Source of the DNA: Patescibacteria group bacterium
GTDB taxonomy: Bacteria > Patescibacteriota > Minisyncoccia > Phycocordibacterales > Phycocordibacteraceae
NCBI GenBank assembly: GCA_038064495.1
Contig: JBBTSZ010000002.1
Span: forward strand, 82,035 to 146,034
Length of the DNA stretch: 64,000 bases
Direction of reading: 5' to 3'
Shown here: piece by piece, positions 898-30,489 of the stretch
Numbering within the stretch: the stretch's first letter is position 1
How the letters are laid out: every line of letters starts with the position of its first letter
Position numbers and translations under genes: made by a program
Notes under the pieces: generated by a model
The model's input: only the letters and a program-made list of their open reading frames with translations
The model's database searches: none
Told to the model about the DNA's origin: nothing

Positions 898-958
898 TTG
901 TCATATCAGCCCGTACTCTAATTCAGGATAGTTGTACGAAACACGAAAGGAGGGTGCA

Positions 959-1786
959 ATGTCACCATACACAAGTCGTAAGGCGCATATTGACTATGTG
1001 CCACTCGACGAACTTACTCGTGGATATTTAGAGCAAGCAGAGAAGGCGTGGACGAAAGTCTGTGCGCTTCCTGTTGAAACGTTGGAAACGTTTGGCTATG
1101 AGCCAGATGGACGACGAAGCGGTGTTGGATTTGAGGTGAAAACGTCTGGTACGAGTTTCGACCACAAGTACGATATGCACCTCACTTTGAAAACAATTCC
1201 GGATCAGCTTCTACAAGCGGACAAAGTGGATACAACCGGCACGTTCTTCAGGTTTATCTTGTTGGCTCAGTGTTTGCTTGAGTCCACGAAAGAGATGATT
1301 CATGCTTATGCAAAGTCTCTCGGCGATCCTCTCCTCGTTGAAGAAACGATGTGCTTGAAGGAGCGCTGGATGCTCAGATTTCTTTGGTATCCGCCAGGAC
1401 TGCCAAGTGGAGAGGTTCTGGCCATGCCACACGCAGATAAGGGAGGCTTTACGCTTGATCTTATCAACGGGAACGGCCGGTTTGAGTACCTTGAATCACG
1501 TGAACCGCTCGTGTGGAGAGAAATGGAAAAGCATGAACATATGCTTCCTGTGCTCGCTGGCATCGGACTGCAAGAACTCACGAAGAGCGAAACAACAGCG
1601 GTCGCCCACCGAGTGATTGCAGACACGATTTCATGCAAAGAGGGTAGGGTGGCAGCGGTTATCTTCGTTGATTACCTGACCCGGAAGCATTTCAACAAGG
1701 CGGTCTACGGGTCACAGCAACTTCAGCCCCTTGGTTGGAATTACACCTGCACCCCGCAAGAATTCAGTACCTTCTTTGTTGAGTAA
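959..1786 (+). CDS. 2-oxoglutarate/Fe(II)-dependent oxygenase family protein (isopenicillin N synthase-like fold)
   Basis: ORF 932..1786; likely start ATG 959 preceded by perfect SD AAGGAGG; LRFLWYPP motif, HxD (MPHADKGG) and distal His (AVAHRV), RVAA near C-term; typical 2OG oxygenase facial triad layout. Confidence 0.6.
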   Translation: MSPYTSRKAHIDYVPLDELTRGYLEQAEKAWTKVCALPVETLETFGYEPDGRRSGVGFEVKTSGTSFDHKYDMHLTLKTIPDQLLQADKVDTTGTFFRFILLAQCLLESTKEMIHAYAKSLGDPLLVEETMCLKERWMLRFLWYPPGLPSGEVLAMPHADKGGFTLDLINGNGRFEYLESREPLVWREMEKHEHMLPVLAGIGLQELTKSETTAVAHRVIADTISCKEGRVAAVIFVDYLTRKHFNKAVYGSQQLQPLGWNYTCTPQEFSTFFVE

Positions 1787-1820: not shown

Positions 1821-2291
1821 TTAGTTCGTTTCAATATGTTTTGAAATAATCGTTTTGCCCGTTGCATCAAATACAAAATCTCCACGGACATTTTTACCCT
1901 TAAGAAAAAGTGGCAACCAGTGCGGGTCATCTATCCACATCTGCTTGTAGGGAATTGAGTCGGTTCGGTACCAAACGGGTTTCATTTCCTCACTTTCACT
2001 CGGTTCGCCCTTCCATATGTATGTTTCAAATATATGTACTTGAATATGGAGACCGCCTTCTCCTTTAAACTGAAACGTAAGTATTCCCCGCGGTGTGAGA
2101 TCTTCAGGGAGCACACTGACTCCGATTTCCTCCTCGGCTTCGCGGATTACCGCTTCCTCAATTGTTTCTTCGCCTTCTACCTTTCCACCAACACCATTCC
2201 ATTTCCCCTCACCAAACCCGCGTTTCTTCATCGCGAGCAGTAGTTCGTCAGGTTTGCTCCGGCGTAGAAAGAGAAGCGTCTGCTTCTTCAT
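1821..2291 (-). CDS. NUDIX hydrolase (MutT-like)
   Basis: Nudix box GGKVEGEETIEEAVIREAEEEIGV (Gx5Ex7REUxEExGU). Confidence 0.85.
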   Translation of the reverse strand: MKKQTLLFLRRSKPDELLLAMKKRGFGEGKWNGVGGKVEGEETIEEAVIREAEEEIGVSVLPEDLTPRGILTFQFKGEGGLHIQVHIFETYIWKGEPSESEEMKPVWYRTDSIPYKQMWIDDPHWLPLFLKGKNVRGDFVFDATGKTIISKHIETN

Positions 2292-2293
2292 GG

Positions 2294-3118
2294 TTAGCGA
2301 TAGCTCGCTCGTACGCTCGTACCGAGTTCTGAAAAGGGTATGGAGACCGTCTGCACACCGGCAGCGTAGGCAGCTACCTGGTAGGGAGGAAAGAGAAGCA
2401 CGAGTGAGGTTCCATCGATGTACCAGTTCTGGAAGTTATCGGCGTCAGGAGTCGTACCTCGGTTCATATAGTCAACATCCACTTCTACACCCTGCATACC
2501 TTCCGTTTTGGCGATAATGGTCGGTAACTTCTTTCGAGAAATTGTTGAAAGCAGTTTCAAGTAGTCGGTTCCAGGAGCAAATACGTCTGTTAAATCAAGA
2601 CCCTCACCCGTTTTTGAGTTGAAGGTGAAACTTCTAAAGTATGCATTTGGGTGAGCGCCAAGCGTGTCTTGATACATTGTGTAGAGGTAGGAAAGAGTAG
2701 TTCCACCACGTTTTAGCACATACGTAATTTCAAGAGATTCTTTCCGTCCTTGGTCAAATCCAAGCATGGATATGTCTTCAGCCGTGAGGTGGTCAAAATT
2801 ACCCTGCTCCTTAAAAGCGGAAATGGTGTTCAGTTCAAATTGCTTCATGACCTCAATGGCTTGTGCGTCTGCACGAGCGGATGCAGAAGCTTTCAGCGGA
2901 GTGACCGAGGGATAGACGGCGGTGATGTCGTAGTAGCGACCATTCTCACTCAAGGTTTTATCGGGAGCTGTGGGTGTGGTCGTTGCGGTTCCCGGAACTG
3001 CGCCGTCTGGGTTCCGTACGTAGGGGGCTGGGTGCTCGCTCATGTACCAGAGCACGAGACCGAGACTGATAACCCCGAGGATGATAACGCCGACAATACT
3101 CGTACTTTTGGTATCCAT
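2294..3118 (-). CDS. membrane-anchored DUF3298/DUF4163-like (RsiV-like) domain protein
   Basis: N-terminal TM helix, T/P-rich linker, then domain resembling DUF4163/DUF3298 family by composition; family assignment by recall only. Confidence 0.45.
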   Translation of the reverse strand: MDTKSTSIVGVIILGVISLGLVLWYMSEHPAPYVRNPDGAVPGTATTTPTAPDKTLSENGRYYDITAVYPSVTPLKASASARADAQAIEVMKQFELNTISAFKEQGNFDHLTAEDISMLGFDQGRKESLEITYVLKRGGTTLSYLYTMYQDTLGAHPNAYFRSFTFNSKTGEGLDLTDVFAPGTDYLKLLSTISRKKLPTIIAKTEGMQGVEVDVDYMNRGTTPDADNFQNWYIDGTSLVLLFPPYQVAAYAAGVQTVSIPFSELGTSVRASYR

Positions 3119-3227
3119 AGATTAGGTACTACTAGTATACGTCCTGCACCTCTAGACGATGGAGTCCAGTGTGTCTTACAAAAAGGGCCCGCCTGAGTGG
3201 GGTCCCTTATTTTCTTTCGTATGCACG

Positions 3228-3383
3228 CTAGAACAGTTTTTCGATCCAGGAGCGAAAGGCTTGAAACCTTTCGTACGAACGCGCACGCCGGCGGAGACGA
3301 TTATAGGCTCTATCTCCGCGTTCCCGTAGATCTTCAAGATCTGCTTGGAGCAAATGACCAGGCATTTTATTGAGTTTACTCAT
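3228..3383 (-). CDS. 51-aa arginine-rich micro-protein with canonical SD ([51 protein letters not shown])
   Basis: hand-translated; GAAGGAGAAAATC-ATG context, TAG stop; below ORF-track length cutoff. Confidence 0.4.
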
Positions 3384-3451
3384 GATTTTCTCCTTCCAGA
3401 ATGACTATACCACCTGTTTTTTGAGTCCCGGAAAGCCCACGTTCGTGTTTT

Positions 3452-3480
3452 CTTGCAAAAAAACACTAAATCATATAGAT
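3452..3480 (+). promoter_or_regulatory. candidate sigma70-like promoter upstream of rpsS (TTGCAA..TATAGA)
   Basis: -35/-10-like hexamers about 40-65 nt upstream of rpsS start; followed by small hairpin CCCGCTTCGCGGG in the 5-prime UTR. Confidence 0.3.
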
Positions 3481-3519
3481 TTTACCTATCCCGCTTCGCG
3501 GGCTTTCCATTGTCTATAC

Positions 3520-3867
3520 ATGTCACGATCACTTAAAAAGGGACCTTTTGTGGACGTAAAGCTCCTCAAGAAGATTTCAGATAAGAAACCAGCTTCTGCT
3601 GGGGTTATTAAGACATGGGCCCGCCGTTCCCAAATTGCTCCTGAATTCGTTGGATTTACCTTCGGAGTTCACAACGGTCAGAAACACGTAGACGTTCTCG
3701 TTACTGAGGATATGGTAGGGCACCGCCTTGGAGAGTTCTCGCCAACTAAGAAATTCGTCCGTCACGGAGGAAAGATGCAGAAGGAGCTTGAGCAGAAGCG
3801 AAAGGAAGCTGAAATCACCGCCGCTAAGGCTGCGAAGGCCGCTCCTGCAGCCGCAAAGAAGAAATAA
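3520..3867 (+). CDS. rpsS: 30S ribosomal protein S19 (with Ala/Lys-rich C-terminal tail)
   Basis: [12 protein letters not shown]...GHRLGEF motif; start chosen inside ORF 3370..3867. Confidence 0.93.
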
Positions 3868-3870
3868 TAT

Positions 3871-4260
3871 ATGGCTTCAATCGGAACACAGAAGAATAGG
3901 ATTGCTTCAGCTCGCAAGGTCACCACTGTTGCGAAGGCTGAGCTTTCTACCTACAACCAGTCACCTCGCAAGGTCCGCCTCGTGACCGATATGGTAAAAG
4001 GAAAGACCGTACAGGAGGCAATCAATGCACTCTCATTCCTCCCAAAGCGTGCCTCGCTCCCTATTTTGAAGCTTTTGAAGAGCGCTATTGCAAACGCAAA
4101 AGCAAAGGGTGAAGACGAGAAAGCCCTTCGTATTGCTGACATTCGTGTTGATTCTGCTGGTATGCTTGTGCGTTTCATGCCACGCGCCATGGGTCGTGCA
4201 GCACCTATACGAAAGCGCCGCAGCAAAGTGGTGCTTGAACTTTCATCTACTGCTTCCTAA
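3871..4260 (+). CDS. rplV: 50S ribosomal protein L22
   Basis: 129 aa; typical L22 N-terminus (KARRVTTVAKAEL style) and order after S19. Confidence 0.9.
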   Translation: MASIGTQKNRIASARKVTTVAKAELSTYNQSPRKVRLVTDMVKGKTVQEAINALSFLPKRASLPILKLLKSAIANAKAKGEDEKALRIADIRVDSAGMLVRFMPRAMGRAAPIRKRRSKVVLELSSTAS

Positions 4261-6266: not shown

Positions 6267-6611
6267 ATGAGTAAAGCAACCAGCGGCAAGCAGACCGCAA
6301 AATTCAAAATAAAGAAGGGTGACCAGGTCATGGTGATTTCTGGTAAGGACAAGGGCAAGCAGGGTCCGGTACTTGAGGTGCTTCCTCAGGACGCAATGGT
6401 CGTGGTTGAAGGAGTCGCTATTGTAAAGCGCCATTTGAAGAATCCAGTTCGCGGTCGCGTCGGACGCATCGCTGAGCGTCCTCGCGCCATCCACATTTCA
6501 AACGTCATGGTCGTAGATCCTGAGCAAAAGAAGCCAACCCGTGTGAAGCGTGAACTACGTGAGGGTAAGCTCGTTCGCATTGCCGTTAAGAGCGCTACCA
6601 AACTCGGTTAA
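6267..6611 (+). CDS. rplX: 50S ribosomal protein L24
   Basis: KIKKGDQVMVISGKDKGKQG (KOW motif). Confidence 0.93.
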   Translation: MSKATSGKQTAKFKIKKGDQVMVISGKDKGKQGPVLEVLPQDAMVVVEGVAIVKRHLKNPVRGRVGRIAERPRAIHISNVMVVDPEQKKPTRVKRELREGKLVRIAVKSATKLG

Positions 6612-8522: not shown

Positions 8523-8873
8523 ATGGCTACTTCAATTCTCACCAAGCAGGAACAACGTGATCGTCGTCACCGACGTGTGCGTTCTCGCATTTCTGGGACC
8601 GAGGCACGGCCTCGTCTTGCCGTTTTCAAAAGTAATCGGTTTGTATCGGTACAGCTTATTGATGACGAAGCTGGCGTAACTATGTTGAGCGCCCATGGCC
8701 GCTCCTTCCCGGGTTCACTTTCTGTACAGTCCGTTGCCGTCGGCAAAGCTATTGCTGAAGCCGCAAAGAAAAAGGGTATCACCACCGTCGTCTTTGACCG
8801 TGGTGGATACGAATACGGAGGCCAGGTGAAGGCACTAGCTGACGCCGCACGGGACGGCGGCCTTACTTTCTAA
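8523..8873 (+). CDS. rplR: 50S ribosomal protein L18
   Basis: [24 protein letters not shown]. Confidence 0.93.
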
Positions 8874-20707: not shown

Positions 20708-21100
20708 TCATGATGGTGTGTATGAAAGAACCCGTATAACCCGAAGACCTTTTCCGTTTGGATTTTCTTGAACCTTGGCTTGTACCTTCCAGCCCAGGTC
20801 AATCATGCTCCTTCCCGTGTGCTTACAGAAGAGCTTGTAATTCATTAGGACCTTCTCTCCTTGACTCGACTCGAGAAAGAGAATGCCTTTCCCCACGAAG
20901 AAATTTGTCACGGTGAGGTCCAGAATACGTACTTCAGTAGTATGAACGGGTGCTGCTGGTTCTGGTTTTCTCTCTTCCGTAACCAGCTGCTTGGAAGCCT
21001 TAAATTCAAAGTCCGGAACGATGCCTTGTGCACGTCCCGACACTTTCTGTGCATATTTCGAAACGCGCGGACCGTTCTCAGTACCTACGTGATTTCCCAT
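20708..21100 (-). CDS. hypothetical protein (SD-led; possible PilZ-like beta-barrel, weak)
   Basis: 130 aa; perfect AGGAGG 5 nt upstream of ATG at 21100. Confidence 0.4.
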   Translation of the reverse strand: MGNHVGTENGPRVSKYAQKVSGRAQGIVPDFEFKASKQLVTEERKPEPAAPVHTTEVRILDLTVTNFFVGKGILFLESSQGEKVLMNYKLFCKHTGRSMIDLGWKVQAKVQENPNGKGLRVIRVLSYTPS

Positions 21101-22196: not shown

Positions 22197-22209
22197 ATTG
22201 TTCTCTATC

Positions 22210-22618
22210 GGTGGAGGTGCGGGGGATTGAACCCCGGTCCGAATCTCTCTTTGAGAACGAGTCTACGACGCATAGTTAGCATTGAAGTTTCAGCAGAAGC
22301 ATAAGAACGCTAACAAAAACGCTTCTACCTAGTCCTTAGTTTTCAGTCGTTCGTGTAGGAGCACGAGAACCTATTCCGTAGAATATTCCGCCCAGCTCAT
22401 CCGCTACGAAAACCGGAGTGAGTGAACGTCGCTTTGGCGAAAGCGCGGGGCTTTTACGCGAAAGCGAACGCAAAGTCCTTGCTACCGAAGTATGGGGACT
22501 TTACGCTTGCAACAGTTGTGTTGGCAAGTTTAGGTGTATGCCAGATTTAGGTGGTGAGCATACTTCCACCGCGTCGCACGTTTCTCAAAGAACGAGACCG
22601 TCAAAGCCAGTCACCCCC
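22210..22618 (-). ncRNA. ssrA: tmRNA (SsrA)
   Basis: 5-prime GGGGGTGACTGGCTTTGACGG resembles canonical GGGGCUGAUUCUGGAUUCGACGG; 3-prime T-arm GGGGTTCAATCCCCC + acceptor CACCTCC-A-CC; 7-bp acceptor with G3:U70 alanine determinant; candidate tag ORF GSKDFAFAFA-stop (about 22454..22486). Confidence 0.85.
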
Positions 22619-22717: not shown

Positions 22718-22942
22718 TTAACGGAAAAGCTTGTCGAGTGGAATAGGATCGCCATCATCGGAAGCTTCTTCGTCAGCGAAACGTGCTTCATCATCGTCGA
22801 GCCCGTTATCGGCAGGATCATCATCAAGATCCCGAGATTCAAGTCCGTGTTGACGGACTATCCGCTCCCGTACGCTTACCTGGTCTTCGTCAACGATACG
22901 CAACTCCTCGTTCACTGGCTGACTGTGCTGGTTTCGTCTCAT
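22718..22942 (-). CDS. small highly acidic hypothetical protein between smpB and ssrA
   Basis: 74 aa, D/E-rich; AAGGAG upstream; same strand as smpB. Confidence 0.35.
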   Translation of the reverse strand: MRRNQHSQPVNEELRIVDEDQVSVRERIVRQHGLESRDLDDDPADNGLDDDEARFADEEASDDGDPIPLDKLFR

Positions 22943-29356: not shown

Positions 29357-30489
29357 CCAAAGACGAGAAAATACTCAAAGCCTTTAAGAAAACAGGTGCA
29401 CGTGTTGCAACTACTGCTCGAGTTCATCTGAGGAACAAGCAGGATCTTGCTCTCTACTACACCCCTGGTGTAGGTGTCGCTTCACTTCATCTTTCAAAAC
29501 ATCCAAAAGATGCACGCGACCTTTCCGTGAAGAAAAATAGCGTGGCGGTTATCTCGGATGGGTCTGCAGTACTCGGTCTTGGAAACATCGGACCCTATGG
29601 GGCACTTCCCGTGATGGAAGGGAAGGCACTTATCTTTAAAGAACTCGCAGGGATAGACGCGTGGCCGATTGTGCTTGATACGCAGGACCCCGACGAAATC
29701 GTGAAGACTATTATGGCAATTGCTCCGGCGTGGGGAGGCATCAATCTTGAAGATATCGCCGCTCCGCAGTGTTTTGAAATAGAACAAAAACTCATCAAAG
29801 CACTTTCTATTCCGGTCATGCATGACGACCAACACGGCACGGCTATCGTGGTACTTGCAGGCCTCATTAACGCATCGAAGGTGGTGAAGAAGAAATTAAC
29901 CTCACTCAAGATTGTCATTTCAGGAGCAGGAGCTGCTGGCTCGGGAACCACCGAACTACTTTTATCCGCTGGCATCACTGACATCATTCTGACCGACCGT
30001 ACCGGTACGCTCTATGTCGGACGAAAGGAAGGAATGACGAAACATAAGAAGGAGCTCGCGCGACGTACGAACCCTCGCAACGTGAAAGGTGACCTCGCGA
30101 GCGCAATGCGAGGAGCAGATGTGTTCATCGGTCTGTCCGGAAAAGGACTGCTTCACAGCGCCGAGATTAAAAGCATGGCTCCACGCTCCATCGTCTTTGC
30201 ACTTGCTAATCCAAACCCGGAGATTATGCCAGACGAAGCAAAAAAAGCGGGAGCAGTCGTTATTGCAACGGGTCGTTCAGATTTTCCAAACCAAATTAAC
30301 AACGCTCTGGTGTTTCCGGGCGTATTTCGAGGTGCGCTTGATAACCGAGTGGAAGCCATCACGACGACTATGCAGTTGAAAGCTGCAAAGGCACTCGCGA
30401 GTCTCGTTACCAAGCCCCATGCGACGCATATTGTTCCTGAAACACTTGATAAACGAGTTGTCCCCGCTATAGCGAAATCCATCCGGTAA
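29329..30489 (+). CDS. NAD(P)-dependent malic enzyme (small type)
   Basis: YTPGVG, DGSAVLGLGNIGP, NAD-binding GAGAAG; ORF from 29278, start chosen after recG start overlap. Confidence 0.8.
   Translation: MGYTGTTMTPKDEKILKAFKKTGARVATTARVHLRNKQDLALYYTPGVGVASLHLSKHPKDARDLSVKKNSVAVISDGSAVLGLGNIGPYGALPVMEGKALIFKELAGIDAWPIVLDTQDPDEIVKTIMAIAPAWGGINLEDIAAPQCFEIEQKLIKALSIPVMHDDQHGTAIVVLAGLINASKVVKKKLTSLKIVISGAGAAGSGTTELLLSAGITDIILTDRTGTLYVGRKEGMTKHKKELARRTNPRNVKGDLASAMRGADVFIGLSGKGLLHSAEIKSMAPRSIVFALANPNPEIMPDEAKKAGAVVIATGRSDFPNQINNALVFPGVFRGALDNRVEAITTTMQLKAAKALASLVTKPHATHIVPETLDKRVVPAIAKSIR

Follow-up and report, generated by a model that had tools for sequence, protein, structure and literature searches.

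A credible unannotated small gene with a strong Shine-Dalgarno sequence, divergent from rpsS, in a Paceibacteria genome

Closest described systems

Lineage-specific bacterial microproteins encoded by unannotated sORFs have been catalogued, for example in GMSC (PMC11364881). The small ORF examined here, which lies beside rpsS in a CPR bacterium, resembles these in its size of about 50 amino acids (aa), in having been missed by annotation, in carrying its own ribosome-binding site, and in having no homologs; it differs in that it belongs to no assigned family and is known here from sequence alone. Leader peptides and attenuators offer another likeness, with their short ORF followed by an intrinsic terminator and genes downstream in the same orientation, but the ORF is much longer than these, the DUF3298 gene downstream has its own putative promoter past the terminator, and no antiterminator is seen. 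Arg-rich RNA-binding peptides and small basic ribosome-associated proteins, such as Sra/bS22, form a further class for comparison. The size of the encoded peptide, its high arginine content, its predicted helices, and the r-protein genes in its neighborhood are all reminiscent of this class, but there is no match in sequence or fold.

What, then, is this ORF? From its sequence it is credible as an unannotated small gene, though one of an ordinary kind, an orphan sORF specific to its lineage. If it is translated, it would be one more lineage-restricted microprotein in a CPR genome, where a large share of the genes lack a known function and small ones are systematically overlooked. It has no bearing on any long-standing open question. 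The locus is more useful than the peptide, in that a conserved frame of promoter, Shine-Dalgarno (SD) sequence, and terminator holds unrelated small ORFs in close relatives, a natural setting in which to study the divergence, shrinkage, or replacement of small genes.

The split rplB-rpsS junction

The window, as we call the whole stretch of DNA analyzed, is 64,000 nucleotides long and comes from a groundwater MAG; judged by the relatives of its S19 and DUF3298 proteins, the host is a member of the Paceibacteria/Parcubacteria (Patescibacteria, CPR). Contig names of assemblies that contain the same sequence suggest Hainich groundwater. The small ORF and its neighbors are arranged as follows.

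13-855: rplB
932-1786, plus strand: a weak 2OG-Fe(II)-oxygenase-like gene, on the strand opposite to the small ORF
1821-2291, minus strand: Nudix hydrolase gene, downstream of the small ORF and on the same strand
2294-3118, minus strand: gene for a DUF3298 ("RsiV family," the NCBI name) protein of 274 aa (Pfam PF11738, E=1e-16)
3228-3383, minus strand: the small ORF, 51 codons (ATG at 3381-3383, TAG at 3228-3230)
3520-3867, plus strand: rpsS (Pfam S19, E=7e-33)

A 4-gene, 2.66-kb insert thus separates rplB from rpsS in what is an S10-type cluster, and the small ORF lies inside it, in a 401-bp spacer and divergent from rpsS, with 137 bp from ATG to ATG. The original prediction placed the ORF upstream of the r-protein operon. 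It does adjoin rpsS, but because it sits in the insert within a split cluster, and points away from rpsS, that description needs correction. The prediction was right to call the ORF unannotated, as it is absent from the NCBI (PGAP) annotation and from two other gene calls; one gene caller did report it on the Logan assembly. The adjacent DUF3298 protein appears from its translation to be membrane anchored by a single N-terminal hydrophobic segment and is without a cytoplasmic anti-sigma domain. For the oxygenase-like gene, the mechanical start is TTG 932, while the likely one is ATG 959, which is preceded by GAAAGGAGG and gives a 275-aa protein in agreement with the gene call on the Logan assembly.

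How do other genomes arrange this junction? Across loci L003-L049, the distance between L2 and S19 is 365-5100 bp in about 27 related Paceibacteria genomes, where it is occupied largely by unrelated cargo ORFs; in most Saccharibacteria loci and all non-CPR loci of the same set it is below 150 bp. The pattern suggests that gene insertion has a hotspot at the rplB-rpsS junction in this clade.

Signals for expression

The following elements surround the small ORF.

3390-3395, minus strand: SD sequence AAGGAG, 6 nt from the ATG, in the upstream context tctGGAAGGAGaaaatcATG
3404-3412, minus strand: extended -10-like element TGgTATAGT, 20 nt 5' of the ATG (read from the sequence)
3180-3208, minus strand: intrinsic-terminator-like hairpin AAGGGACCCCACUCAGGCGGGCCC followed by T5, beginning 21 nt past the stop codon (-10.9 kcal/mol)
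3134-3139, minus strand: TATACT -10 box of the DUF3298 gene, 15 nt 5' of its ATG and past the terminator
3453-3481, plus strand: candidate rpsS promoter TTGCAA-17 nt-TAGATT (read from the sequence)
3490-3502, plus strand: conserved rpsS-leader hairpin CCCGC-TTC-GCGGG, about 18 nt before the rpsS ATG (3520)

The SD sequence was described at the outset as perfect. If a canonical anti-SD is assumed (the 16S rRNA lies outside the window), this SD and the GG beside it could pair over 8 uninterrupted positions, one of them G-U. TGgTATAGT is the putative promoter of the small ORF, and the predicted 5' untranslated region is about 13 nt. A consensus promoter and terminator scan found no -35/-10 pair for the ORF and missed the hairpin terminator as well, since only promoters with a -35 box and hairpins with a short loop pass it; the promoter is thus called from our own reading of the sequence. 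Read on the plus strand, 3180-3208 is a hairpin followed by TTATTTTCTTT, and on the minus strand its tail is TTTTT. Since a hairpin and U-tract can be read on both strands, the terminator may be bidirectional, and it could also stop antisense transcription heading for the rpsS promoter. The TATACT box lies downstream of the terminator, and the DUF3298 gene thus has a near-leaderless putative promoter of its own. The divergent rpsS promoter candidate lies about 40 bp from the -10 element of the small ORF, in a region that is near-identical in relatives.

Might the region encode a structured RNA instead? Rfam has nothing over the ORF, with just sub-threshold snoRNA/lncRNA noise elsewhere in 2800-3900, and the putative transcript shows no unusual folding (z=-1.17); a structured RNA, riboswitch, or leader RNA was set aside on these results. 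No alternative antiterminator pairing appears in the MFE or centroid folds, where the terminator forms independently, and no promoter-like signal for an antisense transcript is seen at the small ORF.

On the rpsS side, CCCGC-N3-5-GCGGG recurs about 18-30 nt 5' of the rpsS ATG in L007, L008, L012, L026, L046, and L084-L095, with an invariant stem and a variable loop (TTC, ACA, ATC, TTG, and others). The roughly 45 nt around it are nearly identical though the DUF3298 proteins of the relatives are each 57-65% identical to that of the window. The hairpin has no Rfam match and may be a 5'-end stabilizer or a regulatory leader of the detached rpsS operon.

The peptide and its database searches

The computed 51-aa peptide is identical to the hand translation in the original prediction. 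It was also said to be basic and helical, and so it appears: the pI is 10.8, the net charge is +5.6, the GRAVY is -1.10, and an AlphaFold2 (AF2) single-sequence model places helices at residues 13-21, 23-34, and 37-50, with a mean pLDDT of 74.5. No segment is hydrophobic; over 19 aa the highest Kyte-Doolittle score is -0.35. The suggestion of a toxin-like or type I toxin peptide fails on this count, since the peptide is not hydrophobic. All four available population contigs with the ORF are 100% identical, with no variation among them by which dN/dS or frame conservation could be judged.

Does the peptide resemble anything known? A search of 5.8 billion proteins returned only the peptide itself, from one assembly of the same population. 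An exhaustive HMMER search of 1.84 billion representatives returned the peptide and P0002, and the latter match was set aside as an artefact of a short "PIPGHTLQADLD" motif of which a 634-aa repeat protein has six copies. When the back-translated peptide was scanned against contigs from genomes, metagenomes, and viruses, no real homolog emerged; the single metagenome match, L002, was rejected as a chance "ARAYNRLRR" in the N terminus of an unrelated 354-aa protein. Nothing in Pfam, NCBIfam, PHROGs, PADLOC, or PDB sequences matches the peptide, nor does anything in phage genomes (tblastn). Foldseek with the AF2 model found nothing significant, the best PDB match having E=6 and a probability of 0.2. 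Similarity to small ribosome-associated peptides, for which a search had been suggested, accordingly finds no support in Pfam, NCBIfam, PDB, or Foldseek (E>=6). The 51-aa peptide is an ORFan.

A small-gene slot in relatives

Peptide searches being empty, what stands at the same position in related genomes? Related contigs were fetched via the neighboring DUF3298 protein. L085, L087, and partial contigs likewise have the cassette of oxygenase-like, Nudix, and DUF3298 genes between rplB and rpsS. Every locus with enough spacer has an ORF between rpsS and the DUF3298 gene, in the orientation of the latter; L012 has no spacer. The ORFs in this slot, in the window and in seven relatives, are these.

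Window: 51 aa
L094: 48 aa, type A
L085: 50 aa, type A
L084: 65 aa, a basic singleton
L090, L091, and L092: 83 aa, type B (cluster P0123)
L095: 86 aa, type B
L087, L088, and L089: 99 aa, type B (P0124-P0133), the true start being the SD-led ATG 2642
L026: 143-162 aa, with a weaker SD

The slot flanks are, from their sequence, clearly the same ancestral DNA in the window and its relatives. The 5' flank of the window scores z=27-33 against every relative, the rpsS leader/promoter region is nearly identical in all loci, and the 3' flank, from terminator to TATACT, scores z=13 against L095. The signals are likewise retained. An SD lies 5-9 nt 5' of the ATG at all loci and is weak only in L026; TGnTAnnnT stands 27-41 nt 5' of the ATG in L084, L085, L087, L090, L094, and L095, and 20 nt in the window. 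The ORFs of the relatives are followed by a GC-rich hairpin and a T-rich tail (-20 to -25 kcal/mol, with differing stem sequences), compared to which the window terminator is weaker at -10.9 kcal/mol. From stop codon to hairpin is 8-23 nt at all loci, and TATACT is kept 8-15 nt 5' of the DUF3298 ATG in L084, L085, L087, L090, L095, and L026.

The encoded peptides are another matter. The acidic type A proteins of L085 and L094 are related to each other (shuffle p<=5e-4), as are the type B proteins, which share an N-terminal core (L090 versus L087, p<=5e-4; L095 versus L087, p=0.002). L084 and the window peptide match neither type. Type A, type B, the L084 singleton, and the Arg-rich peptide of the window make at least four mutually unrecognizable peptides, all encoded between near-identical flanks. 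The pI of type A is 4.1-4.6, and those of L090 and L095 are basic; the acidic occupants argue against a conserved ribosome- or RNA-binding role of the locus. As to conservation of the reading frame in relatives, which had been raised along with the ORF, the outcome is mixed, in that the peptide sequence is conserved in none of them while an SD-led ORF stands at the same position.

With type A the window ORF has in common the slot, size class, SD, and terminator, but type A differs in pI (4.1-4.6 versus 10.8) and shows no sequence similarity. With type B it has in common the position, orientation, flanks, SD-led ATG, extended -10-like element, and hairpin terminator, but type B proteins have the N-terminal core and are 83-99 rather than 51 aa long. 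By flanking DNA the window groups with the type B loci, sharing gtttttttgcaagaaaac with them and having a 3' flank match to L095. Between the window peptide and the 83-aa protein of L090, a Smith-Waterman comparison gives a shuffle p of 0.0076, a borderline value of about 0.05 after 7 comparisons. The likeness falls in the C-terminal part of the L090 protein (GDRAY/GDRAF and SYERFQA/SYFERFCA), the DNA has an in-frame 13/15-nt match (GGwGATAGAGCCT), and in phmmer the ORF ranks 2nd of 1887 six-frame window segments against L090 (E=3.5). The window peptide has no similarity to L095 or L087, and tblastn of the type B family did not match the ORF. Nor does a type B HMM (L087, L090, L095, and P0123) lift it above noise in the six-frame translation of the window, a failure explained by the missing N-terminal core, RPPxIxxA..ALVxAxxxGLTxxDV. 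The simplest reading is that the window gene is the positional counterpart of the type B gene, which has probably lost an internal or N-terminal part here and has diverged so far that the likeness is barely recognizable.

How tightly are the slot genes constrained? In the L090 lineage the small ORF has 2 nonsynonymous changes and 1 synonymous change in 84 codons, compared with 0 and 4 in the 269 codons of the DUF3298 gene, and in one member of the cluster the C terminus is altered and shorter. These counts, tiny as they are, suggest that slot genes in general are under weak constraint.

Some further observations concern the slot occupants. The 5' flanks of L084 (963-1388) and L085 (3616-4000) are almost identical up to the SD (z=81) and their terminators are similar, whereas the ORF bodies, encoding a basic 65-aa and an acidic 50-aa peptide, have no similarity in DNA (z=-0.4) or protein; such alike flanks around unlike bodies suggest cassette-like replacement or very rapid rewriting of the ORF. 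Type B proteins have no Pfam match, and their AF2 model (pLDDT 57) is of too low a quality for a fold search; the core may resemble a helix-turn-helix. A double-glycine leader reading of type A was dropped as it has no supporting neighbors, and so was the idea that type A and the basic ORFs are related by frameshift, since tblastn finds no similarity in any frame. A short GAGATAGA string common to the window and L085 (DNA z=2.8) loses its significance once multiple testing is allowed for.

Chance and coding statistics

Could an ORF of this kind arise by chance? In a Markov-1 simulation of the 401-nt spacer, the probability of AGGAG or GGAGG, 4-10 nt, ATG, and at least 51 codons on one strand is 0.002-0.004; the chance of the same pattern across all intergenic space of the window is estimated at about 0.1-0.2. 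At 49% GC, 50-codon ORFs come cheaply in this genome, and the window has at least two clear cases of spurious antisense ORFs with AGGAG and ATG (starts at 8696 and 38078, minus strand). Viewed window-wide, the small ORF is therefore unremarkable. The lower probability becomes relevant because relatives hold an SD-led small gene at the same position.

Codon usage does not decide the matter. The ORF scores -0.05 to -0.06 bits/codon. Just 1.5% of real 51-codon windows score as low, and 17% of spurious ORFs score as high; nor does the ORF outscore three others that overlap it in different frames. With the same codon model, the conserved type B ORFs of relatives score -0.055 to +0.07. Because these conserved members can score equally low, the statistic is nondiscriminating and the low score is no argument against coding. 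The three overlapping ORFs, all without an SD or a plausible promoter, are the following.

3197-3373, plus strand: begins inside or just after the terminator hairpin
3159-3329, plus strand: begins inside or just after the terminator hairpin
3176-3337, minus strand: reads through the terminator

The notion that four overlapping ORFs mark odd DNA was discarded, as 45% of real-gene windows have at least 4 frames with 50-codon stop-free runs.

Weighing the explanations

The reading that we prefer, and to which we would give an even chance, is that the small ORF is a gene, presumably transcribed separately and translated, for a fast-evolving, shortened orphan microprotein, and that it fills locally a slot for small genes that is conserved in one Paceibacteria (CPR) clade. 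Transcription would begin from the TGgTATAGT extended -10 promoter, back-to-back with the rpsS promoter, and produce a short mRNA of about 215 nt with its 5' end almost at the SD AAGGAG. From this mRNA a cytoplasmic 51-aa peptide, very basic, Arg-rich, and helical, would be made, and transcription would stop at the hairpin and T5, before the independently promoted DUF3298 gene. What might such a peptide do? Given that it is predicted to be cytoplasmic and basic, binding to RNA, DNA, or an acidic partner would, judging by composition, be the most plausible role. An ordinary fast-evolving orphan is most likely because the peptide matches nothing known, and a shortened one because the type B core is lost and the likeness to L090 is at most a faint C-terminal one. 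In favor of a gene we count the ORF's own signals, the low chance probability for its spacer, the SD-led ORFs and shared flanks of relatives, and the one gene caller that reports it. Counted against a gene are the lack of a detectable homolog in any frame, the commonness of stop-free runs of at least 50 codons, the silence of the type B HMM, the weaker terminator, and the omission of the ORF by PGAP and two other gene calls.

It is possible, though we think it doubtful, that the ORF is instead a decaying relic of a type B gene, its conserved N-terminal core deleted and its peptide without selected function; as the ancestral promoter, SD, and terminator persist, such a relic may still be transcribed and even translated. 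The missing core, to which the type B HMM's silence corresponds, the length of 51 rather than 83-99 aa with just a faint C-terminal likeness to L090, the poor codon score, and the degraded terminator hairpin (-10.9 versus -20 to -25 kcal/mol) all fit decay, and the nonsynonymous changes and altered C terminus in the L090 lineage suggest weak constraint. Against decay, the ORF has kept its strong SD and its ATG, and the 51 codons stay open until just short of the terminator; the probability of at least 51 open codons after a given start is about 0.1-0.25 (an estimate, partly from simulation ratios). In addition, the 401-bp spacer is maintained though CPR genomes are compact, and an open ORF is kept in every relative with enough spacer. 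A different account, tentative and somewhat unlikely in our judgment, makes the promoter-SD-terminator unit a conserved "expression slot" in which the ORF body is repeatedly rewritten or replaced. The slot would then be a site of microprotein turnover or birth, and the window peptide a recently remodeled occupant, translated and selected to stay open. The same conservation of promoter, SD, and terminator around unrelated ORF bodies, even between L084 and L085, could be explained by a cis-acting leader ORF, whose translation up to the terminator tunes read-through into the DUF3298 and Nudix genes or insulates them from the rpsS promoter region, leaving the peptide free to drift. Stops 8-23 nt from the hairpin at all loci and an orientation shared with the downstream genes are as a leader would have them. 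We nevertheless hold this to be improbable, as a leader peptide of 48-99 codons would be a long one, the DUF3298 gene has its own conserved TATACT promoter past the terminator, the folds (transcript z=-1.17) offer no antiterminator alternative, and types A and B are conserved as proteins, which is unexpected if their sequence is indifferent.

Quite improbable, too, is a chance ORF in a divergent promoter spacer that is untranscribed, gives a noncoding small RNA, or has its real product in another frame. Cheap 50-codon ORFs, the spurious AGGAG-led antisense ORFs at 8696 and 38078 (minus strand), and a codon score without preference for this frame speak for it, as does an internal ATG (3221) of a plus-strand ORF that has the "tttcgtATG" context of some r-protein genes. 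Set against these are the probability of 0.002-0.004 at a prespecified slot, the absence of SD and plausible promoter from the three other ORFs, which start in or read through the terminator, and the lack of an Rfam match or unusual folding. A type I toxin-like or membrane-active peptide, for which small size and absence from annotation are the only arguments, is effectively refuted by composition: no stretch is hydrophobic (-0.35; GRAVY, -1.10), no promoter-like signal for an antisense RNA is seen, and PADLOC has no match.

Translation initiation in the window

Only 48% of Parcubacteria are reported to show the anti-SD motif (PMC9297842). Is the SD of the small ORF at home in this genome? A strong SD precedes 6 of the 58 well-defined ATG genes surveyed in the window, those with starts at 959, 15043, and 31021 and, on the minus strand, at 21100, 26144, and 27091; five of these SDs are of the AGGAGG type and one is GGGAGG. 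The original prediction, in which strong SD sites were very few, is borne out by this survey. As to its remark that r-protein genes use another start context, the literal "ttttcgtATG" occurs at 6267 and 7317, and r-protein genes restart a few T-rich bases past the preceding stop codon. The SD mechanism is nonetheless in use, since the SD genes carry long AGGAGG-type motifs far above chance for 6-7-mers. In at least 13 of the 58 genes the ATG has a TATACT/TATAGT-like -10 box no more than 24 nt away, a sign that their mRNAs may be leaderless or nearly so. With about 90% of the genes here lacking an SD, the slot is a compact natural case for the coexistence of SD-dependent and SD-independent initiation in Paceibacteria.

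Some other ORFs of the window bear mention. Those at 29595-29987 (minus strand, 130 aa) and 30153-30482 (minus strand, 109 aa), treated as genes in the analysis, have codon scores of -0.16 and -0.13, unlike all others of similar size, and may be recent acquisitions or nongenes. The tmRNA gene (22209-22618, minus strand) has a second SD-led small ORF a short way upstream, at 22718-22942 (minus strand, 74 aa, CGAAGGAGAACAGGAATG). This ORF has no Pfam match, and with a gene-like codon score of +0.20 bits/codon it may be a small protein gene.
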